Of a stretch of 64,000 nt of DNA, positions 33,576 through 62,610 are shown one piece after another. Within the stretch, counting starts at the first letter, position 1. Every line of letters starts with the position of its first letter. The DNA is from Octopus vulgaris (taxonomy: Eukaryota): contig OX597826.1 of assembly GCA_951406725.2 (NCBI GenBank), positions 64,108,001 through 64,172,000 of the forward strand, written 5' to 3'. Position numbers and translations under genes: made by a program. The notes beneath the pieces are model-generated. The model saw only the letters and a program-made list of their open reading frames with translations, was not told the DNA's origin and did not search any database.

Positions 33576-35148
33576 TTTTGAGAGAGATAGATAAATGAAA
33601 CAGTTAGCATTGTGTAAATATTTTGATATGGTTTCAAGCACCTTTCCTTGGTGAAAGGAAGAAAAAATATGTCATGCTATAAATATGGTTTTTCATTCAC
33701 AAAAATGACAATTCTTCATCCTACCACAACCACAAAAAAGAAAAAAAATGTATTCATATAAAATGATTTAAAGCAAAAACGAAAAAAAATGTACTCACAA
33801 ACCATTCTCTGATATTTTACCAGAGACTACATCAATCTAAAACTTTCATCAAGTAAACATTTTTTCCTCTTCATTCCTGTCATTTCATTAAATTAATCAT
33901 TATATCTTAAAAATATCAATTTAGAAAAGTACTCTTGTGTTGTTGTTTCTTGTTTTTTTTTTTTTCTTTTCTATTATTGTTTTTTTCTGCAAACAAAACT
34001 TAATCCATTGTTCTTTCTCCCATTATTTATTTATTTATTTAACAAGAACCTGCTCTGTCCCACCTCTCATACCTTAACCCTCATCTCCAAACTTAAAGAT
34101 GCTGTGATCCCCACCTCTCAGGTTTCATAGTCTTGTGAGCTACAGGATGGCCTCACCAATGTCAGTGGCATGCAAGATGCTTCTAGTATATGCTTGCTAT
34201 AAAATGGTTGGCATTTAGAAGGGCATCTAGTCATAGAAACTATGCCAAAGCAGACACTGGTGCATGATACAATCCTTGGACCCATAAAAGCCTGTCAAAG
34301 TGTCCAACTCATGCCAGCATAAAACAGTGACATTAAATGATGATAATGTTGATTAACTACTCCAGTAATATTTGATCTCCATAGCATGGAAAGCGGACGC
34401 TAAACGATGATGATGATGATGATGATGTGAATTTAAGTTTAAGGGAAAATTAAGTTTATACAAAAGTAGAGAAAATGATTCGCTATTATTTCTTGTAATA
34501 ACGGTTGAAATAGTTTGAAAATGATGTTTCTTTCTAAATAGGACATTTCAGATATTGAAACACCTTTTGAGTTTGCAAGATATTACAGCAAAATATTGCT
34601 TTCCTATGATTAGGTAAAAGGCAAAATTTTGTTGATTGTCTCATCCTCATTCTATTATTGATACTCGGTTTATTAACTGTGGAGGGCTGAAGAGTAAAGT
34701 GAATCTGAGTAATATTTAAATACAGAACACAGAAAAGTGGACCTGCTCTATCATTTCTGCCACTGCCTTTATCATAGCAAGATACTCTCTTCCAATACCC
34801 AGAATATTTAACGTTTTAAAATGTGAAACCAGAACACACAAATAGACTTATATATCAATGATTTAATTAAAAATTACATTCCAAAATGTTTTTAAGGTCC
34901 CTATTAATCTTAAAATTATTTAGAGTAAATCAAATTCATTTTAGATTATTTTAGCAAATTATGTTCATGATATTCAAAATAGCATAAAAATAGTTGTTCA
35001 AATTCATTTTTAGATCATTTTAGCAAATTGTGTTCAATTATCTAATATCAATTCAAAATAACATAAAAATCGTTGTTGGCTTTCATAATTTGATTTAGCT
35101 TCCTTTCCTAGGTTTTTTAATAACAAATTTGAACTGTGTATAATTACA

Positions 35149-35292
35149 TTACATTGGTGCTTCCCTGGGCTGTATAAGAATTTCGTTAACGGCAGCATAT
35201 TCTGGTTGTGATGTAGCGTAAATGCAAGCTTGTGCAACATCATCAGGCTCTAATATCTTTATTTTATTGTGAATATCATACAAATTAATTGC
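35149..35292 (-). CDS. SDR-A last exon ([47 protein letters not shown])
   Basis: ttttacag acceptor, TAA at 35149-35151. Confidence 0.92.
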   Translation of the reverse strand, partial: AINLYDIHNKIKILEPDDVAQACIYATSQPEYAAVNEILIQPREAPM

Positions 35293-38200
35293 CTGTAAAA
35301 TGGAAGAAAAATGAAAATACATCTATAAGTAAACTTAGAATCAACTAGTCAGGTGTAATAAGCTATGCTTTTAAAGTAGGTAATGCAAGAAGAAGAAATA
35401 GCGATGTAAGAAGGTTGATAATATGAAGTACATTGTTTATGTAACTATCCGAACGTTGCTGTAGCCAGCGCCGCATTGACTGGCCTCCATGCCGGTGGCA
35501 CGTAACAAACACCATCCGATCGTGGCCGTTGCCAGCCTCGCCTGGCACCTGTGTCAGTGGCACGTAAGAAGCACCCACTACACTCATGGAGTGGTTGGCG
35601 TTAGGAAGGGCATCCAGCTGTAGAGACACTGCCAGATCAGACTGGGCATGGTGCAGCCTTCGGGCTTCCCAGACCCCAGTTGAACCATCCAACCCATGCT
35701 AGCATGGAAAACGGACGCTAAACGATGATGATGTTGATTTACAAACTTTGAGGGGCATGAAATAATTAGGTTTTATTGATGAAGTTCCAAATAATAACAT
35801 GTAAATACTGGGTTAAAAACCCTTCAAGATAGAAAAAGTGAAAGGCTGCCTGTGGGACATTTCTATTCAATGGTTATTTTTAAAATTCTCATTGGTAAGA
35901 AGAAAGCTTGTAAAATGGGTGGAGAAATTTGAAGGATTGCTTTGGTCCAATAGTGGAATGTCTGTTAAATTTACAAAAGATGTAGTTTTCTCTCCAACAG
36001 GCAGCTTTTTTCTATCCAAAGGGTTTTTAAACCTGATATTTATATGCTATTATTTAGTTTTATCTAATTCTCAAAGACAAGTGGAACAGAGGAGGATGTG
36101 AGGTCTGGGATCTGCAGTTTTCAACTGGTCTTGTTCAAAGCCATCTCTTTCAAAACAAAAATTCACTTCTTCAATTCCAATGTCAAGGTCATTCTTGATG
36201 GGTTAGAAATTTGGAGGGTCATTAAAGCCATAAAGAGTAAGCTACAGGCCTTTGTCAACAAATGTCTGCACTACATCCTCAAGATCTTGTGGCGAGAGAA
36301 AATTTCAAACAGAAGTCTGTGAAATAGAACAAGATGAACTCCCATCGATCAAGAAATTCTAAAAAGGAAATGGGGCTGGATTGGTAACACTCTAAGGAAG
36401 TTTCCAAACAGCATTGCAAGACAAGTGTTAGACTGACAGCCTGAAGGAAAGAGGAAAGTTAGATGACCTAAAACCTGGAAGGGATATGTGGGGGATGGAC
36501 CAAAAACTGGCATGAAATGGTTGTAGCCATATGCTCCTTATGGAGTAATGTGGACTAAACTTTAAAAAATGGCCAAAACAGCTATAGCTTACATCTCTGG
36601 TGTCACATTTTTTAGAGCCAAAACCACCTCGATATCATATTGTCCATGTGATAGCTCAGTTCAGTATTAGATTTTCATAGTAAAATATATTTTAATATAA
36701 ACTTTTGGAAATTGATGTTTTGATATTGGCTATCAAAATACACCAATGGAGAAGTTCTTAACTGGATCAAGCTGAATCTGTTGCTGGAAGCTAGAATTAC
36801 CAAGCATAGATTGGCATATTTTGGTCATATTATGCAGAGAAAATCCCTGGAGAAGGACATCATGCTCGGAATGGTCAGTGGCAAGAGAAGAAGAGGCCAA
36901 ACAAGAACCCGCTGGCTTGACACCATTAAGAGTGACATGGGAATGGCCATAGCCAATCTGAAAGAAGCGACCCAGGATAGGACTGGCTGGAGAACACTAA
37001 TCCATCAAGTAACCGAGAGTCAACTTCGACTGAGCGGATAAGAGAGATCAAAATACATAGTGTAAACTTTTACTTTATTCTTGTCAAATTGAGCATCAGT
37101 CTGGAAATTTGTCTAATGTCACAATGAGTAGTGAAACAGCTAATATTAATTATCCTATTCAAAACCTTTTAGGAATCTGATACAAGTACAACACCAACTT
37201 TCCAAATGCCAACGGTTCAGAATCTTCTATAATCTGTATAAATAACAAGTACTTGTATTTCATTTAATCAATTAAGTAAATTTGATATTTGTTTGAGAGT
37301 GTGTAGGTCAATGTGATCACTCAGTTTGCAAAAATAAGTAACCCAGAAAAGCTTTGGAACCAAACATTTTGGAAGAACATCATTGTACTTGTATTTTATT
37401 TATGTTTGTTCTAGGTAAGCAGTGAAAGGAATTAAATGCTAAATACCTCTTGATCTGTTGTATGATTTAATATCTCTGTTTCCACATCACCTGGTTGAAG
37501 ACATGTTACTCGTATTCCCAAGGAAGCCACTTCTAGTCTTAGAGCTTGGGATAAACCTTCAACAAAGAATTTTGATCCAGAATATACAGCTAAACCAGGA
37601 AACCCCTGAAAAATAGGGATTGGGAGAAAATAATAAATATATAGTGACGTATATTTGCCATTTGAATATGGCTAACCCCTAAGGGTGGATGCTACTGTAG
37701 TTTGTAGCCCCAGAAGGACACCTCCTCCAGCTGGCTATAGACACACTTTCTGTGCCCTATCAGTATTTGCGAAGGGAAGCCATCCTTCCCGTCTTCAACT
37801 TATGATACACACGGACTTGAGTTTCAGGGTATTGACCCGTCATCGGCGTGTGACAATCATAGTTGTTGATGAGAAGTCGGTTCCCTTCACAAATACATAT
37901 ACTTTTTCCAATATCGATTGACACTGATATTGAAAAAGTGAAATCAAACAATGATAAATCTATAAATAAATATATATATATTTTTATTAGACATGTGGTT
38001 TCAGATTTATGACAGAAAATTTGATTAAATGAGGTTGATGCCTTTCTGAAAGGTATTATCAATGTGAGATGATGTGGGTGCAATTTAGAATTGAAAACTA
38101 GTCACTGATGTGATGAGCTGATTTGTTGCTGCTCTTTGGGCATAGATGATTTGGCACAAATGATTAGTTATTCAGCTTTTGTTGATGACTATTATTTTGT

Positions 38201-40518
38201 GGGGCTGGAGGCAAAAACTCCAACATACACGTCTGCACACAAAGATACATAGGCAGAAAGAGTAAAGGGACATTACAATTTAATAATTGAACAAGATTGA
38301 CATAAACTCTTTCCCTTTCTCCAGATACATAAGGAGAAATATGATTATGCACATAAACAGAAGAGGAGAGATAGAGAAGGAGATGAGAACAAAAGGAACA
38401 TTAAAATATCTGTATTAAGAGAGTCAGTGTTGAATCAGTAACACCAAACAAATGGTCTCTGTGGAATATTCATCTTAACAGGGGAAAGTCTGCATAGTTT
38501 ATAGGTGGTTTCAGTCAATTATCCTGTCTTGATGATTGGTACTTACTTGGAAGAATAAGAACTGAAGAAATAAAGGAATGTTGTAGTAAGAAACAATCTA
38601 ATGAGCTGAACAGCAGAAAGTCTTCAGAAAAGAAATTCTTCTCAGGCAAGTGCTTTGGCCTTCAGCTTCTTACATGCTTAGGGAGCCAGGTCATGACTTT
38701 TGGGTGACCTTCTCCTGACACTTTTTAACCACTGAGAAATCCTAAATTTCACTCCTAAGCTTTAAGCGAGGTTCTGGGTGTATATATATATACATATATA
38801 TGACACTTGTGTTTGTTCCTCTATCATACTTCAGCCTTTCAACACCTGCCATAAAGCCCTCCCACTCTCTCAAATACTCCACTCCTCTATAGTCATGGAT
38901 TTTTTTCCTACTGTTGCTTTTCTGTATTACAAGTTACTAGTCATTCACTAGTGCCAGTGACAGAGAAAAAAGCACAGTACCCCTGCAAAATGGTTGGCAT
39001 GAAAAAGGGCACCCAGCCATAGAAACCTTACCAAAGGTAACAATGAAGCCTGGCATATCCCCAGGCTCGCCAGATTCTGTCAAACTGTCAAGACCCTTGC
39101 CAGCATGGAAACCGGATGTTAAATGATAATGATAAAAAAAAATATATATGATGATATAATAAATATATATATATGTGTATATATATACAGGGTCATCGAA
39201 AAATGGTTTCTGTGATTTTAGTTGTCAGTTCTTTTCTACTCAAGGCACAAGGCCCGAAATTTTGGGGAAGGTGGAGCCAGTCGATTAGATCGACCTCAGT
39301 ACGCAACTGGTACTTAATTTGTTGACCCTGAAAGGATGAAAGGCAAATTCAACCTTGGCAGAATTTGAACTCAGAATATATACACAGACAAAATACCTAT
39401 TTCTTTACTACCCACAAGGGGCTAAACACAGAGTGGACAAACAAGGATAGACAAACGGATTAAGTCGATTATATCGACCCCAGTGCGTAACTGGTACTTA
39501 TTTAATCGACCCCGAAAGGATGAAAGGCAAAGTTGACCTCGGCGGAATTTGAACTCAGAACGTAGCGGCAGACGGAACACCGCTAAGCATTTCGCCAGGC
39601 GTGCTATCGATTCTGCCAGCACCCCGCCTTAATTTTGGTTGTTAATTGCACAAGCTGTAAGCAAGCAATCTGTATGAAATCAATGTGGGACTGTATAACA
39701 ACAATAGGAGTTTTGATATTTGCCACTGTTTCACTAGTGAACATCTGATCAGTCACTCCATGACAATAATGGCGACTGTACAGCAGAAAGCGCAATGTGT
39801 GTTGTGGCATGCTGAGTATATAAGGCGGCGAACTGGCAGAAACGTTAGCACGTCGGGCGAAATGCTTAGCAGTATTTCGTCTGCCGTTACGTTGTGAGTT
39901 CAAATTCCGCCCAGGTCGATTTTACCTTTCATCCTTTCGGAGTCGATAAATTAAGTACCAGTTACGCACTGGGGTCGATGTAATCGACTTAATACCTATG
40001 TCTGTCCTTGTTTGTCCCCTCTATGTTTAGCCCCTTGTGGGTAATAAAGAAATAGGTAGGCCGAGTATAAGTCAGTTGTTTTAGTGCAATATCATTTTCG
40101 GCGACTTATGGACGAGATCCACCTACAGACAAAACCACTGTTCGTTGGTTTAACGAAACTGGAAATGTAAAGATTAAGAAATCGCCAGGCTGGCCACGCA
40201 CGTGGGACGAGAATGTGGAGCGTTTGAGACTGTTGTGTTTGCATAGTCTTAAAAAGTCCATTGCTCAATGCAGTTTGGAACTTTATATGCCTTAGACAAC
40301 GATTCAAAATGTGCTGTATAAACGCCAAAGACTTGCATGCTTACAAAATTCAAATGGCACAGGAGTGGCTTTGTGGTAAGTAGCTTGCTTACCAGCCACA
40401 TGGTTCCGGGTTCAGTCCCACTGCGTGGCACCTTGGGCAAGTGTTTTCTACTATAGCCTCGGGCTGACCAAAGCCTTGTGAGTGGATTTGGTAGACGGAA
40501 ACTGAAAGAAGCCCGTCG

Positions 40519-40579
<61 letters not shown>

Positions 40580-41607
40580 CTGTGTTTGTCCCCTCCCAAC
40601 ATCGCTTGACAACCGATGCTGGTGTGTTTAGGTCCCCGTAACTTAGCGGTTCGGCAAACGAGACCGATAGAATAAGTACTGGGCTTACAAAAGAATAAGA
40701 CCCGGGGTCGAGTTACTCGACTAAAGGCGGTGCTCCAGCATGGCCGCAGTCAAATGACTGAAACAAGTAAAAGAGTAAAGAGTATGAAACATAAAATTAA
40801 GGAGAAAGATAGGCTTAAACGTGTCGGATTTGCTGTATTGATGCTAAGAGAAACTGATGACAATGATAGTTATCTTGACAGAATTCTATTTAGTGATGAA
40901 GCAACGTTCCACATTAATGGTCGTGTTAGCTGACATAACAGTTAGATATGGAGAGCTCAGCAAACCAATGGAGCTTTCCAGTACGGCCATGATTTGCCCA
41001 AGGTTAATGTGTAGTGTGAACTCCTTCCCTGTAGTGTTGTCGACCCTTTTATGTTTGCAGAAAACACGATTACGGACGCTAGTTACTTGGACGTTTTAGA
41101 AATGTATGTGTTCCCTCAAATTGCAGTCATTGAAAGAGAAAAGGGAAATCGTGTAATTTTCCAGCAGGACGGAGTGCAGGTTCTCTACAGCTATAATGTG
41201 CAACAAGCTCTCAACAACAGATTCCCTGGCCTTTGGATTGGAAGGAATGACCCTGTTTTGTGGTCACCTAGAAGCCCTGATCTGACTCCTTTGGATTTTT
41301 TTTCTTTTGGGGTTATCTTAAGAATATTGTCTACTCAGAAAAAAAAAACCGGGATCTGCGACATTTAAGAGAGAGAATCCATGCGAAATGATTCAGCCAC
41401 CTGGAAGGAGGTTGACTATCGATTAGATGTTTACCGTGCGACTAGAGGAGCTCATATCGAAATCTACGAAGTAATGTAAAAAAAATTTAAGATTTTCTGT
41501 GTTTTGGTGTGTAAATAAATAGTATACTTTTAATACAGACTTAGTTATTTCATTTTGAAATCACAGAAACCTTTTTCGATGACCCTGTGTGTATGTGTGT
41601 GTGTGGG

Positions 41608-41638
<31 letters not shown>

Positions 41639-44266
41639 TTATAGTTAAGTTATATTTATAGTCAATAGAATGTGGCAGTCCTACACAGGACAATGTTACT
41701 ATTGTTTAGCCCCAAGAAAACCTCTTTTCCAGCTGGCTATCGACACAAAGTTTGTGTCCATATAGTTTGAGCAAGGGAAACAATCCAGAAACTTAGGTCT
41801 TAGAATCACGAAGGCTAGAAATGGGAGCGATAACCTCCCTTGCTCATGCTAAACAGACACAAACTGTGTGTTGGTAGTCAGCTGAAAAGAGGTTTTCCTG
41901 GGGCTAAACAGTAATAACATTGTCCAACACTTTACTGTGTAAGATTGCCACATTCTGTTGGTAAATAAAGTTTACTGTTTGGTACTGTTATTGCATATCC
42001 TCACTCAGACATTTAAAACTAGTTGTTTTTCTCTTTATATATATATGTATATATATTTATATATATATATATATCATCATCATCATCATCATCGTTTAAC
42101 GTCCGCTTTCCATGCTAGCATGGGTTGGACGATTTGATTGAGGGCTGGCGAACCAGATAGCTGCACCAGGCTCCAATCTTGATCTGGAAGAGTTTCTACA
42201 GCTGGATGCCCTTTCTAACGCCAACCACTCCGAGAGTGTAGTGGGTGCTTTTTACGTGCTACCGGCACGAGGGCCAGTCAGGCGATATTGGCATCGCCCT
42301 TGCTCGAAAGTTTTTACACGTGCCACTGGCACAAGTGCCAGTAAGGCGACGCTGGTAACGATCACGCTCAAATGGTGCCTTTTATGTGCCACCGGCACGG
42401 AAGCCAGTGAGTCGCTCAAGCAATGATCACCGTGGATGGTGCTCTTAGCACCCTACTAGCATGAGGCATATGAGGTACATTACATCTGGAGACAACAGGT
42501 GAAGTTAGAGTGGGATAAGAATCCGCTGTGAGCTACCAGCTTGGAGTGTTTCTCAGTGTAAGCGAGAAGGAAGAAAAAGGGTGAATGTCTTAATTCTCCT
42601 GCTTAAATAGTCGTTGCCAACAAGAGCCTCGCCATCGTCTTGTGCATGGCAAACGGTGGCAGGCAAGATCTCACTCCTGTCTTGGACATGGTAATGGCTA
42701 CTGGCGAGATATCGTACAAAATGGTGTTGGCTTCTTGTGCCTTGCTACATATATATATATATATATATAACGGGAAAGTTTACAAAAATAAACAAAAGAC
42801 GAAGGCAGATGGAGTACAAACAAACAAATGTATTAGTATAGCGCTCAGGAATAGAAATAGAAAAAGTCTTTTATGTTTCGAACCTATGCTCTTCGACAGA
42901 AAGATACACAGAAAAAAACAAGGAGAGAAAAAAATGCATGTAGGAGCTAACGATCTATCATGGCATCCTGATATATATATATATAGTAATATAGTTTCTT
43001 TGAAGCCATTGGCATAAAGAAGTAAAATAGCAAAATATTAAAAAACAAAGAGCTTTTTACAATGTGAAAAGGAAGAAGTTTAACAACCTTTATATATTTC
43101 TGGTACAATGGTCCATCATCAGAAATAAACGATGAAAATCTATACAATACTAGCCTGTACTTCCACCTATAACACCAAGATTTGTCCTTTTTTCCTCAGG
43201 AGAGTAGGGAAATGAAATCCATATGCTTTCATTCAATAATGTTTGTTATATTCATAAAATGAAGACCTCACAATCAGGCATCTCTAACATGTCTTGCAGC
43301 AAACTTATATTCTAAATTATTCCACACAATTAATCTGCACAGTGTGAAATATTCCTAATACTACAACAACGCAGATAAATGAAGTGATGATATATAAAGC
43401 TAAAACAAAGCTATATACTTTTCTTCCTGCATCAGAGGATATGTTGACGATATGACCAGACTTTTTCTTTATCATCCCATCAAGGACAGCACCAATACAG
43501 TTAGTCACACCCTGAAAAAACAAAAATGAAATGGTGTTCATTTTTCCAGTTTTATATTTTTCAAAAATTCAATACAATTTATTAAAAGCATTCCCTCTCT
43601 CCCTTTCGGAGAGGCACTGAGCAGCTATATGCACACATACACACAAGGCAAAGGGTGAAATTAATTAATTAAGAAGTAATCAGTAATTTCACCAAGTAGA
43701 ATTCGGCATGTAAAAGACCAATTCATGGTAAGTTTAAGTAATACTAAATAATTAGGGTTCAGCAACGATTTGCCTCACCACTTTGACTGCTATTTCTAAA
43801 TTCGGTGTGGTGAGGCAAATCGTTGCTGAACCCTAATTATTTAGTATATATATATATATATACGTTTATATATTTGTTGTGCAAGATTTTTTATGTGAAA
43901 TCGTGTGTTGAAACAGATATGGTCATTTTGCCAGTTTAGATTAAGTTTAATGTAAAAAATAAATAACACTGAAGCAAAGTAACACCAAATATATAGTGCG
44001 TGTGTTTTTATTGGCTAAACTGGCAAAATGACCATTCCGAAATACAACAATATATATATATATATATATATGGCTGTGTGGTTAGGGAGCTTGCTTCCTA
44101 GCTACATGGTTTCGGGTTCAGTCCCACTGCGTGGCACTTTGGGTAGGTGTCTTCCACTATAGCCCCGAGCCGACCGGAGCTTTTGTGATTGAATTCGGCA
44201 GGTGGAAGTTACTGCCGTGTGTGTATGTGTGCGTATAGCTGCTCAGTGCCTCTCCGAAAGAGAGAG

Positions 44267-44322
<56 letters not shown>

Positions 44323-44974
44323 TTTGTATGTTTGCATGTTACAGATATGTATATATACAGTGTACTGTTATGTGACTCTTTGCAGGTCTGTATTGTATGT
44401 ATCTGTGTGCAGGTGTATATAGTTTTATGTCTACATGTGTATACTGTATGTTTCTTTATACAGGTACATATTAAATGATTTACCTTGCAATTAGTGTCTA
44501 TCATACTATCCCATTCATCTTCTTTATGGTTTTTCATCAATGTGTAATATGAAGTACCAGCACAATTGACCAAAATATCAACTGGTCCAAAAGAACATTC
44601 TGTATGTCGAACAAGCTCTTTCACCTGCAAGAAGAAAAAAAAACATTGACAACAGTTGTTTTTTTTCCATTATTGATTGTTGGTATTGCTATTGTAGCTT
44701 TTCTTGTTTTCATTATCTTGCTTTTATGGTGGAAATTATTTTAATGTAACACACTTTAAATTTCGTGTCAAAATTGTGATGATATTTGGTCAATAACTGA
44801 TGAGGGGCTTAAGCTTGTCTGTGTCCATTCTGTGTGTGTTTTCTGTTTTTCTGTACTTTCATGTTTATTCTCCCTGTAAAGTCCTTTAGGCAAAGTCTTC
44901 TATTATAGACCTGAGTTGACCAATGCCTTGTAAGTGAATTTGGTAGATGGAAACTATCAGGAAGCCTGTCATGT

Positions 44975-45034
<60 letters not shown>

Positions 45035-47027
45035 ATCTTCATGCTTGTGTTTGTTTCCCCACAACTTGACAACTCGTGTTAGTTTGTTTATGTCCCTTGA
45101 TGCGCTGAAGAAGCCATAGTAAAAAGTAACTTTCATACCTGCTGTTTGTCAATAACATCTGTTTTAACGGCAATGACTTGGCCTTGAGCACCTTCTGAGA
45201 ACTTCTTGCATAATTCCTGCTGCTTATCATCCCTGCGAGCAGCCATAGCAACATTTGCACCTGCTTTAACATAGGCTTCTGCAATTGCACAGCCAATTCC
45301 ACTTGATGCACCTGTTACAATGACAACTTTTCCATGGATGTTGGTATCTGTAATATCAAATGAAGAAAATGCATATTTAACACAGCTTCCCCATTGTCAT
45401 CGCAGTAATGGTGGAAGTGGGATCAATTGCTTGACCCCATGGTATCCATCAGTGGGTTACTCTTTTAAATTTTTTACTTCAGCCATTAGACTGGCCATGC
45501 TGGGAATACTGCCTTGAAGAATTTTTAGTCAAATAAATCGACCCCAATACTATTTCTTTTTAAGACTGGTATTTATTCAATCAATCTCTTTTGCTGAACT
45601 GCTAAGTTGTAGGGATGTAAACATACCAACACCATTTCAGTTCTATATTTAAGAGATGAAGAATTATGTGTAATTCTTCATCAATAAGTAAAATGATTAT
45701 AATTGATCAGGAATTGAACCCAGATTGCAGGTACAACAGCAGTAGTCAGCACAATACAGGTGAAGTTATGTTAAGTCAGTGACCTAGAAGTAGTAACTAG
45801 TAAGACCCTAAGATATTAATGTTGCAGTTCCTTGAACTCATAGGACTGGTTACTCAATTTCCATGGCATATAAATGCCTGAGATCCCAATTTTTCCTCTG
45901 AAAGGGACACCGGTCCATTGAAGGGGTACTAGTCCATAATATTTACAGCTGAGTGGACTGGAGTTATATGAAGTGTTTTGCTCAAGAACACAATGCACTA
46001 CCCAGTCCAGAAATTGAAACCACAAGCTTGCAATTGTGAATGGAACACCCTAAGCACAAGATCATGCACTTTTACTGTCAGAGCTACTAGCAAGTTTTAA
46101 AAGGGAATAACAAAACCTCAGACAAATGACATTGTTTCAGGTAATGGCATATATATGACATTGTCTCAGATAGATACAATTGGTTACCCTGGACATTTCC
46201 TATGCTGGGATGACTGTTATGTTCAGCACATTGAGGTAGAGTTAAAGAGACAATCCATGCAGTGGAAACACTTCTCCTCACCTGCTCCAAAGAAGGCCAA
46301 AGTTGTTTCAGCTACAAGGAAGGTGACAGCCACAGGTTTTAGGGATGCAAAAAGTATTATGTTTGTTGACTACCTTCAAAAGAACCATGCCATCTATGGA
46401 GAGTACTGTGCCAACTTGCAAAGGGAGCTACGAAAGGGCATGAAAACCAAACACTCAGGAAACTGACAAAAGGGATCTTGTTCATTACAGCAATGCTCCA
46501 ACATACAAGTCCTTGGTTTCAATGGCCACTATGTGTGACTGTGGCTTTGCACTGGTTGATCACCCTCCCTATTCTGATTTGGGCCCCATTTTATTATCAT
46601 CTGTTCCCCTACATGAAAAAAATACTTGGCCGGGAAGCAGTATTGCAGTGAGGATGTCACAACTGCTGTTCATGACTTCTTTGACTAACAGGACAAAATC
46701 TTCTTCACTAATTGGATCACCAATGGAAGAAGTGTGCGGAAGGGAAGAGGACCTATGTTGAAAAATTAGTCTCATTTTGTCACATTTGATGAAAGTGTCT
46801 TGGTCAACCAATGAACTCTTCAGTTGATCCTTGAACATGCAACTTACCTTTACCACTCACTTTATAAAGTAAAAGGTAAAGTTAATTGAAGCCAGATTTC
46901 AACTCGGAGAAAAGAAATTAAATACTACTGCTGCCACTCAGGATTACTATGAAGAATATATTTGTAGTTTAAATAAATTTTTAGAAAAAAAAAAAAAGAT
47001 TTTAATGAACTTACTGATAGCACTCAT
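35149..47027 (-). CDS. SDR-A: classical NADP(H)-type short-chain dehydrogenase/reductase (YdfG-like / ATRR R2-domain-like), complement(join(35149..35292,37447..37605,43419..43511,44484..44624,45139..45347,47015..47027)), 252 aa
   Basis: All junctions are GT-AG and in phase (759 nt). Motifs: TGASSGIG, AARR (NADP preference), DILVNCAG, TNCKG, NISSDAG, YSGSK, QPGDV, VNEILIQPREAP. The 13-nt first coding segment is the least certain part. Confidence 0.9.
36130..36560 (+). mobile_element. RTE-X LINE 3' fragment
   Basis: FNSNVKVIL, LQAFVNKCL..ILKILW, RKWGWIG.TLRK motifs. Confidence 0.75.
36735..37045 (+). mobile_element. RTE (BovB-like) LINE 3' fragment
   Basis: RLAYFGHIMQR..LEKDIMLGMVSGKRRRG..RTRWLD..DRTGWR. 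Confidence 0.85.
37447..37605 (-). CDS. SDR-A exon with YxxxK ([25 protein letters not shown]...TTDQE)
   Basis: 159 nt, GT-AG, catalytic YSGSK. Confidence 0.93.
37645..37970 (-). mobile_element. About 330-bp structured insertion with a central hammerhead; absent from the paralogous SDR-B intron
   Basis: Empty site visible at 60880-60910; related termini at 26990-27077 and 41666-41958. Confidence 0.7.
37808..37852 (-). ncRNA. Minimal type I hammerhead ribozyme-like motif on the SDR-A sense strand
   Basis: cacacg-CCGATGA-cgggtcaataccct-GAAAC-tcaa-GTC-cgtgtg: 6-bp perfect stem I extended by a long rod, 4-bp stem II, GUC site. Confidence 0.65.
39188..41587 (+). mobile_element. rosa/DD41D Tc1-mariner transposon interrupted by four SINEs
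   Basis: About 31-bp TIRs CAGGGTCATCGAAAAA(T)GGTTTCTGTGATTT; MATVQQKAQCVLW, FSDEATF, QQD-41 aa-D (SPDLTPLDFF). Confidence 0.9.
41666..41958. repeat. Palindromic element with about 110-bp arms, related to the 37.65-kb element
   Basis: ggacaatgttactattgtttagccccaagaaaacctctttt vs aaaagaggttttcctggggctaaacagtaataacattgtcc. Confidence 0.8.
43419..43511 (-). CDS. SDR-A exon ([31 protein letters not shown])
   Basis: 93 nt, GT-AG, contains the catalytic Ser region. Confidence 0.93.
43741..43847. repeat. Perfect 41-bp inverted repeat with 25-bp loop; a second 21-bp IR at 43919-43939 / 44015-44035
   Basis: atactaaataattagggttcagcaacgatttgcctcaccac and its reverse complement. Confidence 0.9.
44484..44624 (-). 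CDS. SDR-A exon (VKELVRHTECSFGPVDILVNCAG...IDTNCK)
   Basis: ttcttgcag acceptor, AAG|GTAAAT donor, 141 nt. Confidence 0.93.
45139..45347 (-). CDS. SDR-A exon with Rossmann motif (TNIHGKVVIVTGASSGIGCAIAEAYVKAGANVAMAARR...TDVIDKQQ)
   Basis: ttacag acceptor, CAG|GTATGA donor, TGxxxGxG motif; this frame is not shown in the ORF track. Confidence 0.93.
46200..46830 (+). mobile_element. Decayed mariner (irritans-like) fragment
   Basis: KRQSMQWKH..SPAPKKAKVV, IMFVDYL and HPPYSDL motifs. Confidence 0.75.
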
Positions 47028-47164
47028 TCTTGATAATTTCTGTGGTAACAAAGTTTGTCAAAATATAGTTTCAAAAGAGTTGAATCAATATCAGGATATT
47101 CTCCAGAATTTCAAGCAAATTACAATTTCTGAATGTATTTAGAGCAGAAAAAAACTGAGTATTT
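47015..47164 (-). other. First coding/5'UTR exon of SDR-A; probable frameshifted relic of an NRPS thioester-reductase (R1) C-terminal exon
   Basis: Strong acceptor (tctctctattatttttctgccttcacag) and GTAAGT donor. Two broken frames read NTQFFSALNTFRNCNLLEILEN and YPDIDSTLLKLYFDKLCYH. The only ATG is at 47027 and is in frame with the SDR. Confidence 0.6.
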
Positions 47165-47599
47165 CTGTGAAGGCAGAAAAATAATAGAGAGATTATTTGT
47201 AATTAACAATATTTTCTTTAAATTAAATATAATAAACCAACAAAACAAGGATAATGATATTAGACATTATAAGAACCAATTTGCAGCAGATTTGCAGACA
47301 GAACTCAAACCATGCTTGCCAGGAAAGCATCTTACCAAATACAGAGTGCCATTTTGCTGATTACATGGAGCTTAAATGAAGTTTCAGTTTCCTCAGTGGT
47401 TGTCAGTTGATCTTTTCTATCTCAAATGTTAAATTATAATTATACCAAACTTTTACTTTGAAAAATAAATTAGTTAACACTAGAGAAAAAAGAAGTCTTA
47501 ATTGCTTGCATAAACAAAGGTTTCTTTTTAAAACAATTCAAATAATAGAAATTTATATAAGATCCATAAACTGGTTTTCTAAACTCAACTCTAATAACT

Positions 47600-50500
47600 G
47601 TGGTGTTATGAGCCAGGCTATGTTGTAGGGAAGGACCGGAAGTGAAGGAGTATGCATGTCCTGTTGGAAGTGGGGCCTGTGGGTCCCACCAAAAGGGCTG
47701 TGGTGGGCATGCGGGGTCGGTGAGGTGCGAGTGGCCAGTTGGTGGTGAACAGTATATGAGAGCAGACCTGTTAGATGGTACAGCAGCAGACAGAGTACAT
47801 GGTAGAGTGGCAGAAAGAGCATGTGGACATTGTGAGTGACCCTTCCAGATTGACAGGTGAGACTACTGCAATTCTCTCTCTGCTTTCCATCTTTTCCTCC
47901 CTCACATCACAAGCTATTTTGGCACAAAAAAAAATTGATGGGTATGGTCCATATTTCAAAAAAGACGGTTTGGCCATTTTGTGGTGAGGGAAACGTCACT
48001 GCATGGTTGAAAAAAATTAAGTTAGTGGCAAGACTCCACAGTAAAGATGACCTAGAAAGTTTTATACCATTGTACCTTGATGGATCAGCATTGGTGCTAT
48101 ACCTGGAAATGATGGAGAAAGACCAGTTAAGCACAGAGAAAATAGAAGTCTGGCTGATGGAGGCTTTCACTGAAGGGCCATTTATGGTATATGGTCGACT
48201 GGGGAAAGCAAAGTGGATGGGTGAACAGGTTGATGTGTTTTCCAATGAAATCAGGAGATTGGCCAGACTTACGGGATACGAAGATGATGCATTGGAACAA
48301 ACAGTTACATTAGCATTTGTAGCAGGATTTCCTGACCATGTGTTGGTCAAACTGCAAAAGCTGCTGAATATTCACTCCATGGCAATGGTGGAGGTAATAT
48401 CTCAGGCCAGAGTCCTCACCTTGTGTTGTAGGATGACGCCTTTAGCAGCGACTGTAACAATGAGAAGGGGTCAAACAGAGCGGCGGAGAGGAAGGAACGT
48501 GTGTGTGCAACCCTTCAAAGGGCTGTGTTTTTGGTGTCAGGGTTTGTACATGGTGAGAAGCTGCAAAGAACCGAGGCCTGGAGTAATTTGCCATCGATGC
48601 AGAAAAAACAGGCCACATTGCTAGTGAATGCATTCAGAGAAACGGCCTAAGGGAGACTACTGTGCCAGTAGTCATCCTGTCGAAAGAAAAGAGGTGCGTA
48701 TACAGTCATCGCCAATAGTGGAAGTCATGGTGAATGGAAAGGTGTCACGAGCCCTCATGGACATGGGCTGCTCAACAACCCTAATGACTCCGGAGGTAGT
48801 AGAAGAATGGAGTGAAGTGAGTAGTGTAAGGGCTGTTGACGGTATGGAAGTTGAATGCAGAAGAAGTAGTGATGTGGAGATGGTAGTAGAAGGAAAGAGA
48901 TTGGGGTTGTGTACGATCGTTATTGACTGCATGGTGAACGGAATCAATGTGGTGATGGGGATGGATGCCATTGTCCGTTTGGGAGGTATCACAGTCAATG
49001 AAGCTGGTTGAATTCAGCACTGAAGATTATGGCGACAATTCTCAAAACCATTCTGGGAAAGGCGGACAAAGTGAAAAAAGCCACCAGTTCCTATATTGAT
49101 AACATTCTGGTGGACAAGAGCATAGTGTCAGCAAAGGAAGTCATAAGCCACCGGAAGAGTTTTGGGCTAAACTACTGGAGGAGGAGCTGCACAGGGTCTC
49201 AAGCTATGGAGAGACAAGGCTGACATGTTGATGTTTCAGAGAGGGAATGAGATCCCAGAACTAGGCAAGAACTGTTTTCTGTGTGTGGGAAGCTGCTGGA
49301 ACACTATCCGATTGCAAGATGGTTCCGGACAGCATGCAGCTTCAAGAGGCGAGCTGAAGAAGTGAGGTGGAGTGACAATGTGGGAAAGAAGACAACTGAC
49401 ATGATGCAAGAAGTCTTGGAGAGAGTGACTGCAGAGGACCCAGTAAGAGGAAACTGGTATGTATCCAAATTGAAGAATGGGATCGTGTGCTGTGATGCTA
49501 GCAGCATAGTAACAGGAGTTGTCATGGAAATTGGAGGTGTTGTGGTGGAGGATGTGGCCTGGCTCAGGAAGAAGGATGACTGCAACCACATCAATGTGGC
49601 AGAGCTGGATGCTGTGTTGAAGGGGATGAACCTGGCCATGAGGTGGAGGCTGCATACCATCAAGATCCGGATCGATTCAGCCATTGTACTTAGATGGGTA
49701 GGATTAGAGATCACTGGTGAGCGGAGGGTGCGAACCAAAGTGGGCACAGAGATGCTGATAAGATGCTGTTTGGGAATTCTGGGTGAGCTAGCTGCTGAGT
49801 TTGGCCTGAGGCTGAGTGTGTTTTTTTATGCCCTCTGAGAGGAATAGAGTGGACGTCCTGACTAGAGTAAAGAAAGCCTGGTTGCTGGTGCCGGAGGATC
49901 TGGAGCAAGGAGTGGCTGCAGTGTGTTGACTGAGTGACTCGGAGCTGAGGAGACTGCATACCATGCATCACATGGGGGTAGACAGGACCTTGTTCCTAGC
50001 CAGGAAAGTTGACTCTGACATGACCAGGCAGAGCGTGCAGAGAGTGGTTGGGAGCTGTGACAGGTGCCAGTTCATTCACCCCACTCTGGGTGTGCATGAA
50101 GCAGGAAGCATTCCAGTGGAATACAATTGGAAACAACTGGAACACTATCAGCAGGGTACATACCTCTCGATGGTTGACTGCAGACTGGGGTGGTTTGCCA
50201 TATGGAGGGAGATAAAGATGGGGACCACAGAGGAAATCACAAGAATACTAAATGAGATATTCCTAGAATGAGGCACTGTGGATGAGGTGCTTCTGGACAA
50301 TGGCATTGCATTTTGCTTGGAGGTGCTGAGGGAAATGCTCAACAAGTGACATGTTAGCCATTTCTTAAGGGTGGCATACTAGCCAAGGGGCAATGGGGTT
50401 GTAGAGAGGTATCATCACACCATCAAGACCATAGCAGAGAGGGGCCACATTTCACTGGTCGAGGCCGTTTTTTGGTATAATATGTCACCCAGGTTGGGAC

Positions 50501-50750
50501 AGGCTGAGGAGCCAGTGTCACACAGGGCAATACTCAAATATGAGTGGAGACATCTATGTACTGCATCACCACAATCTGCAGAAGAGAAAGAGCATGCCAT
50601 TGTGCAAGTTGGGGAAGAAATCTAAGTTAAACCTCCAAATGCGCAGTGCACATCACAATGGGGAAATAACCTCTATAAATACAAGGAACAATGTGTCTGT
50701 AGATGGCATGTCACATCATGTTTTGGATGTGCACAGGATCATCAATGCAG
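47600..50750 (+). mobile_element. Degenerate Ty3/Gypsy LTR retrotransposon internal region (gag-PR-deleted RT-RH-IN)
   Basis: Gag with Cys knuckles (47857-48624), protease ALMDMG, YIDNIL, RNase H CDAS/HINVAELDAV, integrase HH..CDRC, DNG, NGVVER; LTRs not recognisable. Confidence 0.88.
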
Positions 50751-50751
50751 G

Positions 50752-51068
50752 GATGGCCCCTCATGCAGCAAGAAGTGCCCCAAACAGCTCGTGTCGGTTC
50801 CTGTATTGCTGCACATTCAAATCTCTACCCAATCGACTCCAGAGGTTCTCAATAGGGTTCAGGTCAGGTGAATGGCCAGCACGTACTCCTCGCCACCAAA
50901 GAGGTATCCCGTACTATCTCAACGTACTTTGCTGCGTTGATGTTGCCTTCGACGGCATAGAGCCGCCCAACACCACTGTAGCTGAACGCCCCTCACACCA
51001 TCAGACCACCCCCACCATGCTTCATGGTGAGCAAATCAAGGGTGCTAATTAATTTCGGACGGTAGTGT
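50752..51068 (-). mobile_element. Tc1 fragment
   Basis: Minus strand SPDLNPIENLW; terminus ...ttcggacggtagtg-ta. Confidence 0.7.
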
Positions 51069-52260
51069 ATATTATTGAAACACATATTAGAAAGACAAGA
51101 ATTAAATTCAATTTATAGTATGATATTATATATAATTTAACTTAAAAAAACACTTTAAGACAATATAAGTAAAAACTAATAAGTTAGTAGATTTGAAAAT
51201 ACAACTGACTACTTCTTTTTAATAACCATATGGTTTCTTACTGATTCACAACTATCCACTACTACTATTAGTAACTTTCAGAAAATTCAAATAATACAAT
51301 AGACTTGAAATTATATCAATATGCCTTGTGACTATAAAGTATGTGGTATCATTAAAAAACAAATTTTTCTATGAATAACCACTCCCAGCCTAACCAAGGA
51401 CAATTTCTGACCTCAATAATGTCTATTGCTGATATTATTTCACCTAGACAAACTGAAGATAAACATCTCATTGAAGAAAGTTCAAAATTTACTACTATGT
51501 ACAACTCTAATGCAAATTAATTGAGGAGAAAATTTGTCTTTAAACAATGCCAAACTTTTATGCCCTGAAGAGATCACACCAGTAATGCATAAATTACAGC
51601 ATATGAATATGCAACAATATGCAATTGGTGTGATCAAAACACCTGTCAGACTTTTATACTAACTGGAAATAAACAAAGTTTAAAACCAACCACTCCAAGA
51701 GTGTAGTGGGTGCTTTTATGTGCCATTGGCACGAGGGCCAGTCAGGTGGTACTGGCAATGACCACACTGAAATTGTGTTTTTTACATGCCACCTGCATAG
51801 GAGCCAGTCCAGCAGCACTGGCAACGACCTTGCTTGAATATTTTTTTCCCGTGCCAGTAAGGCAACACTGGTAATGATCACGAATGGTGCTTTTTATGTG
51901 CCACCAACATGGGAGCCAGTCAGCTGCCCTGGCAACAATCGCGCTTGGATGGCTTTGGACGGCCCGTGGCTATAGTAGAAGACACTTGCATAAGGTGCCA
52001 CACAGTGGGACTGAACCTGGAACCATGTGGTTTGGAGCATATGTATGTGTGTATGTATGTGTTTATATATGTGTCAGTATATACTTTTGCATGTATATAT
52101 GTATAGGTTTGTCTAGAAGTTTGTATATTTGTTTTGTCTGTGTTATACTTGTGTTTATACTTGTACTCTCTCTATATATGTGTGTGTGTGCGCACAGATG
52201 CACGTGTGAGTGTATATATATATATATATATATATATATGCATGTGTACACGCACATATA

Positions 52261-52300
<40 letters not shown>

Positions 52301-53297
52301 ATAGGCATGTGATTTTACATATAAAAGATATCTTTTAACCTGGTTTGCAAGTATCATTTTATGGCTATCTAATATCTTCACATATTCAATGTGTCTGAAT
52401 TGTTTGAGCAGATGTTGGCAGACATACAGCCTTTATATATGTATGTGAATCTATTAACTTTTAAAGTCCTATAGTGTCTTCAATGTGTAAATCTTTCAAT
52501 ATTATTAGAAACTAGAGATTTTGATGAAATGCAGTTAGTTCAGGATAACAATAGTAGAAATATAACTATTGCATGAATTTGTATTAAATTTACTGATATG
52601 ATATATTGATTGATGGTATGTACAGTGAAAGTGGTTTTTATCTATTGTTGATTTTTTTATACCAGTGATCAAGCCCTTTCATCTACCAAATTTAGTTGAA
52701 TACAGTGAAGTTGATTATATATGTACATATATACTTTTACAAGAAATTGATTCCTGATCATAGATTTTATAATTAAATCATTGATAAATATATAATGCTA
52801 AATAAGATCATTAATAAATAATATTACTGAATTGTAACTCACTGTTCTTAACCAACAAGTTGAAGGGAGACAAAATCTGGAGAAATTTTCTTGATGAAAA
52901 GCAAAGAAATAAACAAACGTTGTGCAGGTAAGGAGTCCTTTGCAGTTTAATTATTTTCTGGTGCATATGAGCTCTCTCTTATGATATTTGACCTAAACAA
53001 ATAACGCTTTGCAATTGGGCAACAGCTACTAATATCTAGTCTCAGACATAAACGTAGTCTCTTTTGATAAGCTAACTGTATTTGTTACTTTCTTTTTATA
53101 CCCTTTTAGTTCAACACACACGTGTCAACTACAGTGACTAAGTTTTCATATTTTGATGATGAGATGGACACTCATACCATTTTTTATTTTATTTTTTAAA
53201 ATTTTATTTAGTTTCAGCTCACAAGCTGTGGCCATGCTGGGGCACCACCATGTACAAAAAAATTAATAATAATCATTAATAATGTACAACTATTAAT

Positions 53298-53336
<39 letters not shown>

Positions 53337-53558
53337 CCTTTCTTTTATAGGTACAAGGCTTGAAATTTGTGGGGAGGGCACCAGCCAATTAGATTGACCC
53401 CAATGCAGAACTGGTACTTAATTTATCGACCCTCGAAAGGATGAAAGGCAAAGTCGACTTTGGTGGAATTTGAACTCAGAGTGTAGTGACAAAGGAAACA
53501 TTGCTAAGCATTTCATCCAGCATGCTAACAATGATGATGATGATAATAATAATAATGC

Positions 53559-53608
<50 letters not shown>

Positions 53609-53642
53609 TTAATCAATAATATTAATAATAATCAATAACATT

Positions 53643-53838
53643 AATACACAAACGTTTTGGTTTTGTACATACCTGTTGTGTGTGTCACACCTCAAAGAAG
53701 TGGCAAAGCGAGAGAAAGAGGAGGACAGAGAGGAAGTAAGAGAGAAAGAGAGAGAGAGTGAAAGAGACAGTAAGTGGTGACAGCATTCATTTTGTGTTTT
53801 TAAATGTTTCAGAGAGAACGTAAGAGAGGAAGGAAGGG

Positions 53839-53873
<35 letters not shown>

Positions 53874-54499
53874 AAGTGAGAGTGAAAGAGACAGTGAGTG
53901 GTGACGGCATTCGATTTGTGTTTTTAAATGTTTATCACATCGTAAGAGAAGTATATACATATATACATTGTTAAATCAATAGAGGGAGAGAAGAGGGACA
54001 CAATGGAAGTGAAAGAGAAAGAGAGAAAGTGAGAGAGACAGTAGATATATAAATCCAAAGAAAAGTTCATACATAGATACATATACACTGCAAATATTGG
54101 CTGTCAATTTTACTTTTCATTACCACACGAGGATAAAATTAACTCACAAATGGCTAAGTACTCCACAGACATGCATAACATTAACATTGTTCTCAGGGAG
54201 ATTCAGCCTCATACAGAATATGACAAGGCTGGCCCCTTTGAATTACAGCTACAACTTGAGACTGTGTGTGTGTATAGTATAGGTTAGTTAAGACATGTTT
54301 GTAATAATAAGTGTCGCGTGGTGGAAATAAATGCAATTACCAAACTTTCATTCATAAATCTATTTATCATCTCGTTCTTTTGCATTTCAATTCTCTCTCT
54401 TACTTCCTCTCTGTCCTCCTCTCTCTCACTTTGCCACTTCTTTGAAGTAAGTGTGACGTACACAACAGGTATGTACAAAAACAAAAAGTTAGCGTATTA
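53643..54499. repeat. Inverted repeat pair, about 110-bp arms (53643-53750 / 54390-54499)
   Basis: ttttgtacatacctgttgtg...aaagaagtggcaaag...gaggacagagaggaagtaagagag and its reverse complement. Confidence 0.75.
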
Positions 54500-56109
54500 A
54501 TATTATTGATGGTTTTAAACTTTGCCACAAGGGCAGCAGTTTTGGGGGGAGGAGATGAGTCGATTACATCAACCCCAGTGTTCAACTGGTACTTATTTTA
54601 TTGATCCTGAAAGGATAAATGATATGCTTGTGAACACTTGTAGCTATTGAAACAGTCACTGGAAATGAAGTTTTTGAAATACCAATGATGTAGCTTAACT
54701 TCCATCTTTCTTCATACACACACAAATACAAACACAATATCACCATCTTCATCATCATCATAATCATTTTTTCCGTTTTGATGCTGGCAAGATTTTTCAC
54801 AGCAATATTCTGTACCCAACTTCCCTTCTTGACACTGTATTTCCTTGACATGTGAGGTGACGGTTATCTCCCTTGTATTAACAATCATTGGTAGAGGGAA
54901 CCACATGTATAATTTCATAGAGTTCTACTCAAGCAGAGATTAACCAAACTTTTTTAATGGCACATTGTCTGCAGCATGGGATTATTCCCAAGTAATGACA
55001 CAGAACTACACAAGGAAAAATAGGAATCTCTGATGGCTTCTGCCAATTCTCTTAAGAGTATATTAGATAATGTAGTCTTTCATACCCACTAAAAAGAACA
55101 AATGCAATGGATTTTTCCATTGATTTGGTTAATCAGGGTTGATCTGAAACTAAACAAAAACGGGTTGATCTTTCCATTCTTTGGTCAATGTTATTGCAAA
55201 GACAGTAACTTTTCTGCTGCTGAAGAGCTCAAAATTATGTGATCTGGCAGATCCAGCTGGTGCAAAAGATATCTGTCAGCAATAAAATAAGAGTGATTTT
55301 TATGCATCATGAGTCTATATGAAAGGTCCTATCAAGGTAAATAATGCTGTATTCTCTGTTCTAACCTAAGTACCACTATAAGTTGGAGATAAAGATTTAT
55401 CTTCTCATATATAACGGAAAAGAGAGACAAAAGTGGGAGAGAAATAGACAGAGAGCAGAGGCAGGGCCAGATAGGAAGATAGATAGGAACAGACAGACTA
55501 GTAGATTGCATACATGCACACAAACATATAGATGAATAGACAGATTGATGGATCTGCACATCTATCTATAGATAGATAGATAGCTAGATGGATAGATGGA
55601 TAGATAGATAGATAGATAGATAGATGCATGGCGGCGAGGTTAAGAAGTCAACAAGTTTGCTTGAGAACCACCTGCTTTTTTGGGGTGGGTGTGGGTGTGT
55701 TGTTGGAGCCCACTGTACAGTTCCTTAAGCAAGTGTTTTTTATTCTAGCCTTGTTGCTAATGCTTACCATGTTTCCAAGCAAGGTAATATTTCCCATGTT
55801 TTCCATGAAAGACTGGAAATGAATAACATCATTTGTAAGATGGTGATTTTAAGACAAGAGTATACACACACACACACGATAGATTTTCAGTTTCTGCCTG
55901 TCAAATCCACTCACAAAGCTTTGGTTGGCCCAGGGCTATTGTAGAAGACCCTTACCCATAGAGTCACACAGTGGGACTTGAACCCAATACCATATGGTTG
56001 GGAAGCAAACTTCATAACCACATAAGTTACTCCTGTACCTATAATACCAAAATAATATTGCAGTATTCTTCTAAGACATCCAATCTGAATGATACAAACC
56101 ACAGATTTG

Positions 56110-56363: not shown

Positions 56364-56730
56364 GGCAGTTTGTCTGTGCGTTTTCTGTGTGTCTGTTTTC
56401 TCGTACCCTCACTCTGACCATGGCTTTCAACCGATTCTGATGAAACTTGACACACACATAGCCCAATGTCATAATTCAAAACTAACGCAGCGAAAATTTT
56501 GAAAAGTTCCCCCAGTTCTGAAAAATCGATAAATTCGACATGGGGTCGAGAATCAGAAACCCAAACCACAGACCGTCTAGGGGACGCAACTCCACCTTTT
56601 TTAACTCTCAAAAAAAAAATTTACCATCATTTTTTTCCCATTTTTTTTCTATTTTTTGGCTATAACTCTCTAAAAATGCTTTATAGTTATTTCCCTTACA
56701 AACCTGAGCAACGCCGGGCGATACTGCTAG
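56345..56730 (+). mobile_element. Non-autonomous Helitron-like element
   Basis: 3' end gagcaacgccgggcgatactgCTAG|T; 5' end obscured by (TA)n; shares its 3' part with 57437-57800. Confidence 0.7.
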
Positions 56731-57232
56731 TATATATATATACTAGACTAGGCTGCATGTAAATATATATATATATATATATGGAAACTAATGAGAGAGC
56801 ATGGTCTCCCAACTTGCTAGAAATAGTTGCCTGCTAAATGTCCTTCAGATTACATCCCATTTTCAAATAAAGGACACTGTATAATCTGGTACTGGATGCA
56901 TTCTGCCTCTAAAGAGAAAAGGATAGTCATAGTTAGAATGCCTCTGAGCATGTCTGCTCAATCAAGATTGATTTTTAACCAAAGTAACAGCAATGTCAAT
57001 GACCATGTTTAGTACAAACTATTGCGTTAGTTTTATTGTGTGAAGAAGATAAAGATTTCAAATTAAAGACTGGAATGGAATTGGCTTTGTTTGAATTTTC
57101 TTTTTGTAATAAAATTTCCCATATTATTGCAAGTCATGCTTGCTGATTGACCTATGACTTCTAATTATGAACTGTATATGATGATGGCATGTGCATAAAC
57201 AATTTCTTAGTTTATTTTAAAGTTTGTTTTCC

Positions 57233-62153: not shown

Positions 62154-62212
<59 letters not shown>

Positions 62213-62547
62213 GTATGTGTGTGTGTGTGTGTGTGTGTGGAGGCGCAATGGCCTAGTGATTAGAGCAGCGGACTCGCGGTCGTAGGATCGCGGTTTCGAT
62301 TCCCAGACCGGGCGTTGTGAGTGTTTATTGAGCGAAAACACCTAAAGCTCCACGAGGCTCTGGCATGGGGTGGTGGCAATCCCTGCTGTACTCTTTCGCC
62401 ACAACTTTCTCTCACTCTTTCTTCTGTTGGACTGCTCGTTTAGCCAGTGGGGTGGCGTCATTTGAAGGCTAAAACAATGCGAAATGCATTGTGACCAGCG
62501 ATGTGTAACAATATCTTATGGCCTGGTCGGTCACGGTGATCACGGTG

Positions 62548-62610
<63 letters not shown>

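Follow-up and report, generated by a model that had tools for sequence, protein, structure and literature searches.

A 5′-truncated tandem duplicate of an ATRR-like gene in Octopus vulgaris, predicted to encode a stand-alone aldehyde reductase

In the fungus Aspergillus nidulans, ATRR, a glycine betaine reductase that resembles nonribosomal peptide synthetases (NRPS-like), carries two successive reductase domains, of which R1 makes betaine aldehyde and R2 reduces it to choline; the excised R2 reduces betaine aldehyde alone (10.1101/559534). As far as these texts go, ATRR substrates have so far been examined in fungi, nematodes and a diatom (10.1101/559534, PMC11050029, PMC13194791): a nematode ATRR is named MiATRR (PMC11050029), the diatom A-T-R1-R2 enzyme makes tryptophanol (PMC13194791), and a further paper names ATRR only in its references (PMC11869996). 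The closest described genetic events are the human 5′-truncated partial duplicates HYDIN2, ROCK1P1, FRMPD2B and CHRFAM7A (PMC6169893). Here we describe a 64,000-nt window of Octopus vulgaris contig OX597826.1 (source genome, 2.8 Gb), in which a 3′-terminal copy of an ATRR-like gene has been left with a reading frame for a single short-chain dehydrogenase/reductase (SDR). We call the copy SDR-A, and the 3′ end (R2) of the parent A-T-R1-R2 gene SDR-B; positions above 64000 continue the count from the window through the adjoining loci L004-L015. In the literature searched, which did not cover subscription journals, we found no paper on ATRR or on an R2 copy of it in cephalopods.

The parent gene and its partial duplicate

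All 1282 residues of the parent protein P0004 map to exons between 125.8 and 60.0 kb, and Pfam places four domains in this one chain: A, PP-binding (T), NAD_binding_4 (R1) and adh_short (R2). The 5′ part of the gene, recovered by tblastn with the full-length A-T-R1-R2 protein, extends beyond the window, the remaining exons lying 3.5-62 kb outside it (L004-L010). The last 252 residues of the parent are identical to those of the O. vulgaris entry P0040, and its animal relatives are labelled “glycine betaine reductase ATRR-like.” SDR-B is thus not a stand-alone gene; it is the R2 part of an ATRR-like gene that is intact, in keeping with the resemblance that a preliminary description, made from the letters of the window alone, had proposed. 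The domain order is that of the fungal and nematode ATRRs, with the copy corresponding to their R2 at the level of domains; unlike ATRR, the copy lacks A, T and a working R1.

59411..63423, minus strand: parent 3′ end (SDR-B = R2), with exons 63331-63423, 60707-60865 and 60051-60194 plus the 3′ untranslated region (UTR).
34461..54761, minus strand: duplicated block, whose collinearity with the parent begins at the 3′ end and reaches into the intron above the R1-tail exon.

Copy and parent form a collinear chain with offsets of 20-25 kb, firm to ~53260 and weak to 54761, whose upper break point falls in the intron that precedes the R1-tail exon. Between 47.2 kb and the parent 3′ end, tblastn detected no exon of R1, T or A, and four parent exons from farther upstream, compared with 47.2-59.5 kb, gave scores within or just above those of 20 shuffles each, none clearly above. 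This absence had been noted in the preliminary description, which had also inferred that only the 3′ exons of the multidomain gene were duplicated. This holds: the last six exons lie in the block, and the R2 of the copy has an open frame to itself. The same description had spoken of gene fission. Because the parent has lost nothing and retains all four domains, the event is a 5′-truncated tandem duplication rather than a fission in the strict sense. Nor is SDR-A a retrocopy that has lost its introns, since all five are present at parent positions and are homologous to the parent introns. Instead, the 3′ exons and the polyadenylation region were copied, the ancestral promoter and 5′ exons are absent, and the parent is intact. 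We consider the origin of SDR-A by partial duplication near certain.

The route resembles that of the HYDIN2-type duplicates, in which the ancestral promoter likewise stayed behind when the 3′ exons were copied, transcription has to find a new start site and the protein is shortened (PMC6169893). Unlike those duplicates, the octopus copy was cut one exon upstream of the border between two domains, where an in-frame Met is located, which leaves a whole enzyme domain with its native N terminus; it is also older, with a synonymous divergence (dS) of 0.23.

The gene model of SDR-A has a 252-codon open frame over six exons and GT-AG borders at 5/5 introns.

47015..47164, minus strand: relic R1-tail exon, of which 47164-47028 is likely 5′UTR and 47027-47015 coding; copy of a 173-base parent exon.
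47025..47027, minus strand: inherited start codon, the R1-R2 linker Met, with A at −3; codon and context are the same as in the parent.
45139..45347, minus strand: exon 2 (Rossmann fold, TGxxxGxG, basic R42); Pfam adh_short, E 1.3e-13; 15/209 bases differ from the parent.
44484..44624, minus strand: exon 3 (NCAG motif; first cluster of changes, residues 98-118); 22/141 bases differ.
43419..43511, minus strand: exon 4 (catalytic Ser region); 2/93 bases differ.
37447..37605, minus strand: exon 5 (YxxxK, Y160-K164, and PG motif); 11/159 bases differ.
35149..35292, minus strand: coding part of exon 6 to the TAA (second cluster, residues 194-216, begun in exon 5); 23/144 bases differ.
34461..35148, minus strand: 3′UTR, 94% like the parent 3′ end, with AATAAA at 34674.

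SDR-A differs from the parent R2 at 33/252 residues. It belongs to Pfam PF00106 and carries the cofactor motif TGASSGIG at residues 16-23 and AARR at 40-43; TGxxxGxG together with a basic residue after strand 2 is the signature of classical NADP-dependent SDRs. The catalytic N119, S146/S147, Y160 and K164 are the same as in the parent, and S147, Y160 and K164 are invariant across 48 rows. In Octopus sinensis, a separate 252-aa protein (P0044) is annotated, which shows no difference from SDR-A over residues 48-252 (205 residues); the four residues that differ all lie within the first 47 and are all parent-type. The annotation of O. vulgaris itself holds P0162, to which the copy protein is identical from residue 5 onward. 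A structure model of P0044, which as a model built from a family alignment says little on activity, shows a single Rossmann domain (predicted local distance difference test score 90.7) with a TM score of 0.92 to clavaldehyde dehydrogenase 2jah. YdfG-like classical SDRs (2jah, 3p19 and the sulfoacetaldehyde reductase 6ixj) share the motifs and the fold (E 2e-43 to 1e-32, TM up to 0.92-0.94), and are only 33-38% identical to SDR-A; its substrate is not inferable from them. Lacking the four-domain chain and retaining only a broken R1 tail and R2, SDR-A is likely a separately transcribed, stand-alone NADPH-dependent short-chain aldehyde reductase, as far as its sequence allows prediction.

A relic R1-tail exon and an inherited start codon

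The exon at 47015-47164 is 150 bases long, with an acceptor (...TTTTTCTGCCTTCACAG) and a GTAAGT donor that are both identical to those of the parent exon. The features first read from it, namely these splice sites, a sole ATG with A at −3 and two broken frames upstream, were all found again. A search of the genome DNA with the exon returned two matches, itself and one paralogue 24 kb upstream at 71028-71200, which is an intact 173-base coding exon of the parent. Aligned to this counterpart, the relic differs at 12/150 bases and carries two deletions, one of 13 bases following 47100 and one of 10 bases following 47043, so that the R1-tail frame is broken, as the preliminary description had supposed. 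The parent exon encodes residues 978-1034 of the 1282-aa protein. The R1 domain of this protein aligns nearly full-length to MxaA, a thioester-reductase domain of known structure (4u7w; E 2.5e-60 with all of R1), and within this alignment the relic segment matches the last helix, in agreement with the proposed resemblance to an R1 C terminus. The whole domain is required for this assignment: with the R1-tail exon alone as query, Pfam gave no family and the PDB matches were confined to unrelated chains. In contig run X16 (described below), a 474-letter record over 46686-47144 has 15 inserted letters in total, fewer than the 23 required to undo both deletions, and the exon is therefore likely broken also in the organism of that run.

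The ATG of this exon splices in frame to the Rossmann exon, the join to 45347 giving the 252-codon open frame. It had been described as a new start codon supplied by the decaying exon, and this part does not hold. A Met lies 15 residues ahead of the Rossmann motif in 7/7 cephalopod rows and in 0/8 other animal rows, two of which have a Met at 13 or 14, P0015 not being among the rows counted. The SDR-A ATG is the in-frame linker Met of the parent, in the same context, and is therefore inherited and not new. P0044 of O. sinensis begins at the same Met. Ahead of the cofactor motif there is no in-frame ATG, either within exon 2 or in the open frame that extends upstream of it, and a working protein therefore needs an upstream phase-1 exon. 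A frame that enters the relic exon from the upstream exon of the parent runs into a stop at codon 54. A second, out-of-frame ATG of the parent exon is gone from the copy through one change at 47160, which is compatible with use of the relic exon as 5′UTR and could also be due to chance.

Upstream of the relic exon, the copy alone has an ATG and a GTAAGA donor-like site near 47354-47330, 170 bases above the relic acceptor and absent in the parent. A splice from this site would reach a stop after five codons, and the donor near 47354-47335 scores 4.6, under 21 chance sites in 12 kb, leaving it unproven as a donor. Two further candidates were set aside: a conserved block at 52375-52913, which resembled an internal promoter and has a GTGAGT donor (score 3.2), is one member of a dispersed family of repeats with 41 matches, and a match at 56611-56740 near a parent exon, considered as a relic exon, is a repeat instead.

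Based on these data, we propose the following history. The tandem duplication itself, of the six 3′-most exons of an A-T-R1-R2 reductase gene that is still intact, is shown by the anatomy of the locus. The copy would then have gained a promoter and a first exon within 47.2-59.4 kb. The transcript would splice into the R1-tail exon, which could become 5′UTR because translation could begin at the Met already present at the domain border. The R1 part would then have decayed freely with the R2 frame retained, and replacements in the loops that follow strands 4 and 6 would have retuned the pocket. The predicted product, an SDR on its own, would use NADPH to reduce a small free aldehyde, outside the A-T-R1 supply line.

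Expression, constraint and competing explanations

Contigs of runs X1, X4, X5 and X16 were compared with the locus; the runs are taken as RNA by guess only, and their depth was not used for ranking the two genes. Record 6 of X1 has no mismatch to the copy over exon 3, where the parent differs at 22/141 bases, and it departs from the genome at both exon borders. It extends 85 letters before and 19 letters after exon 3, for a total of 244. These figures are reproduced when exons 2-3-4 are modelled as spliced, with copy and parent written as a graph of 31-letter words, provided that the copy has parent-type letters over 45330-45192. Record 7 supplied these limits, which leaves the 19-letter side and the total of 244 as the only independent checks. 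Contigs that fit spliced, copy-type exons 2-3-4 occur in X1 and X4, and copy-type 3′ ends or exon 6 contigs in X1, X4 and X5 (records 1, 17 and 25). The parent-type letters in exon 2 of the copy (45330-45192) are found in P0044, X1 and X16, yet not in the window; we interpret 45192-45330 as a gene-conversion tract that varies between lineages or alleles. Other tracts of conversion may lie in a noncoding block at 51949-52246, 98.6% identical between copy and parent, and in the exon-4 region 42961-43479, where the depth of an X16 record is double that of the records beside it.

The coding part of the copy bears marks of constraint. Compared pairwise with the parent, the nonsynonymous rate (dN) is 0.072 and dS is 0.227, a ratio of 0.32 (P 7e-6), which flatters the copy because the parent R2 is nearly frozen (1/252 residues differ from an O. 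bimaculoides entry). No gap falls in the 759 coding bases, compared with 2 for the relic part and 43 for the 3132 noncoding columns (11 hand-picked blocks); at the intron indel rate about 5 coding gaps would be expected on the copy branch, and the probability of seeing none is 0.005. Using Argonauta as outgroup, the 33 changed residues divide into 21 copy-side, 7 parent-side and 5 unclear. The 26 copy-side or unclear changes avoid the 74 columns invariant among 25 multidomain relatives, with 3 seen and 7.4 expected (P 0.029), and they are clustered, 14 of the 26 falling within two 21-residue windows, 98-118 and ~194-216 (P 0.004). In SDRs generally, they take in the loop that follows strand 4, the beginning of the helix forming the dimer face and the substrate-binding loop that follows strand 6. 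Because the changes cluster in segments that include substrate loops, we hypothesize that the copy likely has a substrate different from that of the parent.

In a quick tree (49/50 rows entered), the copy nests in the cephalopod ATRR R2 group with support 99. A dating tree places it as sister to both parent rows (81/81), and a younger origin also fits (approximately unbiased test, p 0.42).

From these results, we put the chance that SDR-A is a working stand-alone enzyme, translated from the linker Met, at somewhat better than even. Several observations weigh against it, most of which fit a copy that is transcribed and dispensable and is becoming a pseudogene, its frame kept by chance, past selection or conversion. 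On the copy branch itself dN/dS is ~0.47-0.52 (P 0.03-0.08, with synonymous changes split evenly by assumption), and the relic part, with 7 replacement and 3 silent changes in 137 bases, evolves at a rate close to that of the coding part. Under neutrality the chance of no stop codon is 0.24. Three of the changes, L47Q, L86F and E246Q, fall in invariant columns. In X4, record 23 is two letters short in exon 3, and among the 2-base losses tried along this exon, one (44494-44493, codon 118) gives the length and flanks of the record; if the record is real and not an artefact, which it may be, the X4 sample carries a frameshift (null) allele of the copy. Conversion from the parent, for which exon 2 provides the tract, blurs rates and dates, and no copy-type protein from another octopod was found among the best 120 of 1145 matches. 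Two points concern the 5′ end rather than the frame: P0162 starts at 50958, in another exon inside a high-copy repeat, and neither the 47015-45347 joint nor a promoter or first exon was found, the 15 listed of ~2700 joints from the mapping of the runs including none at a copy exon, in a list dominated by repeats in which holes there prove nothing. The dN/dS comparison, proposed in the preliminary description as a sign of selection on SDR-A, thus speaks for it in the pairwise ratio, and against it on the copy's own branch, where the possible frameshift allele adds to the doubt; selection on SDR-A appears only partial. Decay toward a pseudogene is nonetheless an unlikely explanation, the most substantial of the alternatives, given the absence of coding gaps together with five intact introns, the avoidance of invariant columns and clustering of changes, and the 205 residues shared without difference by two species.

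Far less probable is that exons 2-6 of the copy serve as an alternative 3′ cassette of the parent, with the parent R1-tail exon spliced to 45347 to give an A-T-R1-R2′ isoform and the relic exon decaying because it is skipped. The parent's own tail exon does join exon 2 of the copy in frame and without a stop, no new promoter would be required, and parent and copy share a strand, with the copy 5 kb downstream. Such a transcript would have to skip five parent exons and the parent polyadenylation signals over 26 kb; moreover, the relic exon has kept both splice sites unchanged and lacks the out-of-frame ATG, and the O. sinensis annotation has two separate proteins. We regard as equally improbable a working stand-alone gene that leaves the relic exon unused and takes another first exon, such as the repeat-derived 50958-50928 of P0162, which joins exon 2 in frame and is the annotated start, given that this exon lies inside a high-copy repeat, that contig record 32 of X5 passes unspliced through its donor, that the donor scores 4.4, below 27/28 donors of the matrix, and that P0044 starts at the linker Met.

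Free R2 domains, ATRR substrates and neighbouring features

Proteins resembling a free R2 also occur in other animals, namely in oysters (P0163, P0047 and P0169), Dreissena, Lottia, hemichordates and Diadema. They are ~250 aa long with a Met just before the Rossmann strand, and they group with ATRR R2 domains, none of them with the octopus copy. The free R2 of oysters differs from the R1-linked oyster form at 1-4/244 residues, yet has its own N terminus, as would be expected of either a different first exon or a copy of very recent origin; the non-oyster entries may be split annotations. Over R2, the free oyster proteins P0163, P0047, P0169 and P0171 are 98-99% identical to the R1-linked P0165 and P0168. 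Among four other entries (P0005, P0186, P0043 and P0045), the Argonauta one (1033 aa) lacks R2 and has its end in the R1-tail exon, a decapod-like one of 252 aa starts at the linker Met and possibly comes from a cut contig, and those of Lingula and Phytophthora have two tandem R2-like domains.

In ATRR, glycine betaine is bound in the A domain by an aromatic cage, F-W-W, together with a Glu. The A domain of the parent has the candidate cage residues F200/F201, W203 and E302. At the position 68 residues past W203, 3/3 octopod rows have Ile or Leu and 5/5 other animal rows (one of them decapod-like) have Trp; the putative match of this position to fungal W270 is by spacing taken from two papers. 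The change from Trp to Ile/Leu suggests that the octopod ATRR substrate may have changed. Together with the tryptophanol made by the diatom A-T-R1-R2 enzyme (PMC13194791), it makes glycine betaine no more than a possible substrate of the parent. The position lies in the parent exon at ~103148-102993 in extended coordinates (L008:9136-9148 region) and was read in proteins P0040, P0039 and P0042. Between P0039 and P0040, R2 (residues 1031-1282) differs at 1/252 residues and A-T-R1 at 49/1030; between the parent and Argonauta, R2 differs by 12% and A-T-R1 by 16%. The parent R2 seems to have slowed after the duplication.

A broader scenario, which we offer as a tentative and rather doubtful one, is that animals have repeatedly freed the R2 of ATRR by different routes, oysters through another first exon and octopuses through partial duplication using a coleoid-wide linker Met, perhaps kept because the parent makes an R2-only isoform. 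The octopus copy would be newly specialized with a rebuilt pocket and the parent A domain would have lost part of its betaine cage, so that the pathway would have been rewired at both ends.

The route through a 5′-truncated duplicate was known and the gene was already annotated, which limits the surprise; the octopus case is a clear example of this known route to new genes, with a function that is predicted. What the locus adds is that the exit of a domain from a multidomain enzyme can be read stepwise, from the break point to the decayed neighbouring exon and the inherited start codon, beside an intact parent. If the copy is active, the parent R2 and the free R2, 33 differences apart, would offer a ready-made comparison with which to ask what animal ATRR reduces.

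Other features of the window are the following.

47600..51050, strand not assigned: copy-only insertions, a gap in the collinear chain with open reading frames.

Within this gap we take the frames at ~47850-50650 (plus strand) to be decayed LTR-retroelement-like, and that at ~50750-51050 to be transposase-like. The latter piece is part of a high-copy repeat, with high depth in run X16, and it is in this repeat that the annotated first exon of P0162 starts, at 50958. Broken retroelement- or transposase-like frames on the plus strand, presumably of these classes, lie in or above the copy introns at 47850-50650, 40676-41365, 46101-46758 and 36724-37038. Downstream of the copy, the segment 31293-31631 (plus strand) is presumably, from its motif, the last exon of an ING-like PHD-finger gene; it is convergent with the SDR-A 3′ end, ~2.8 kb apart.

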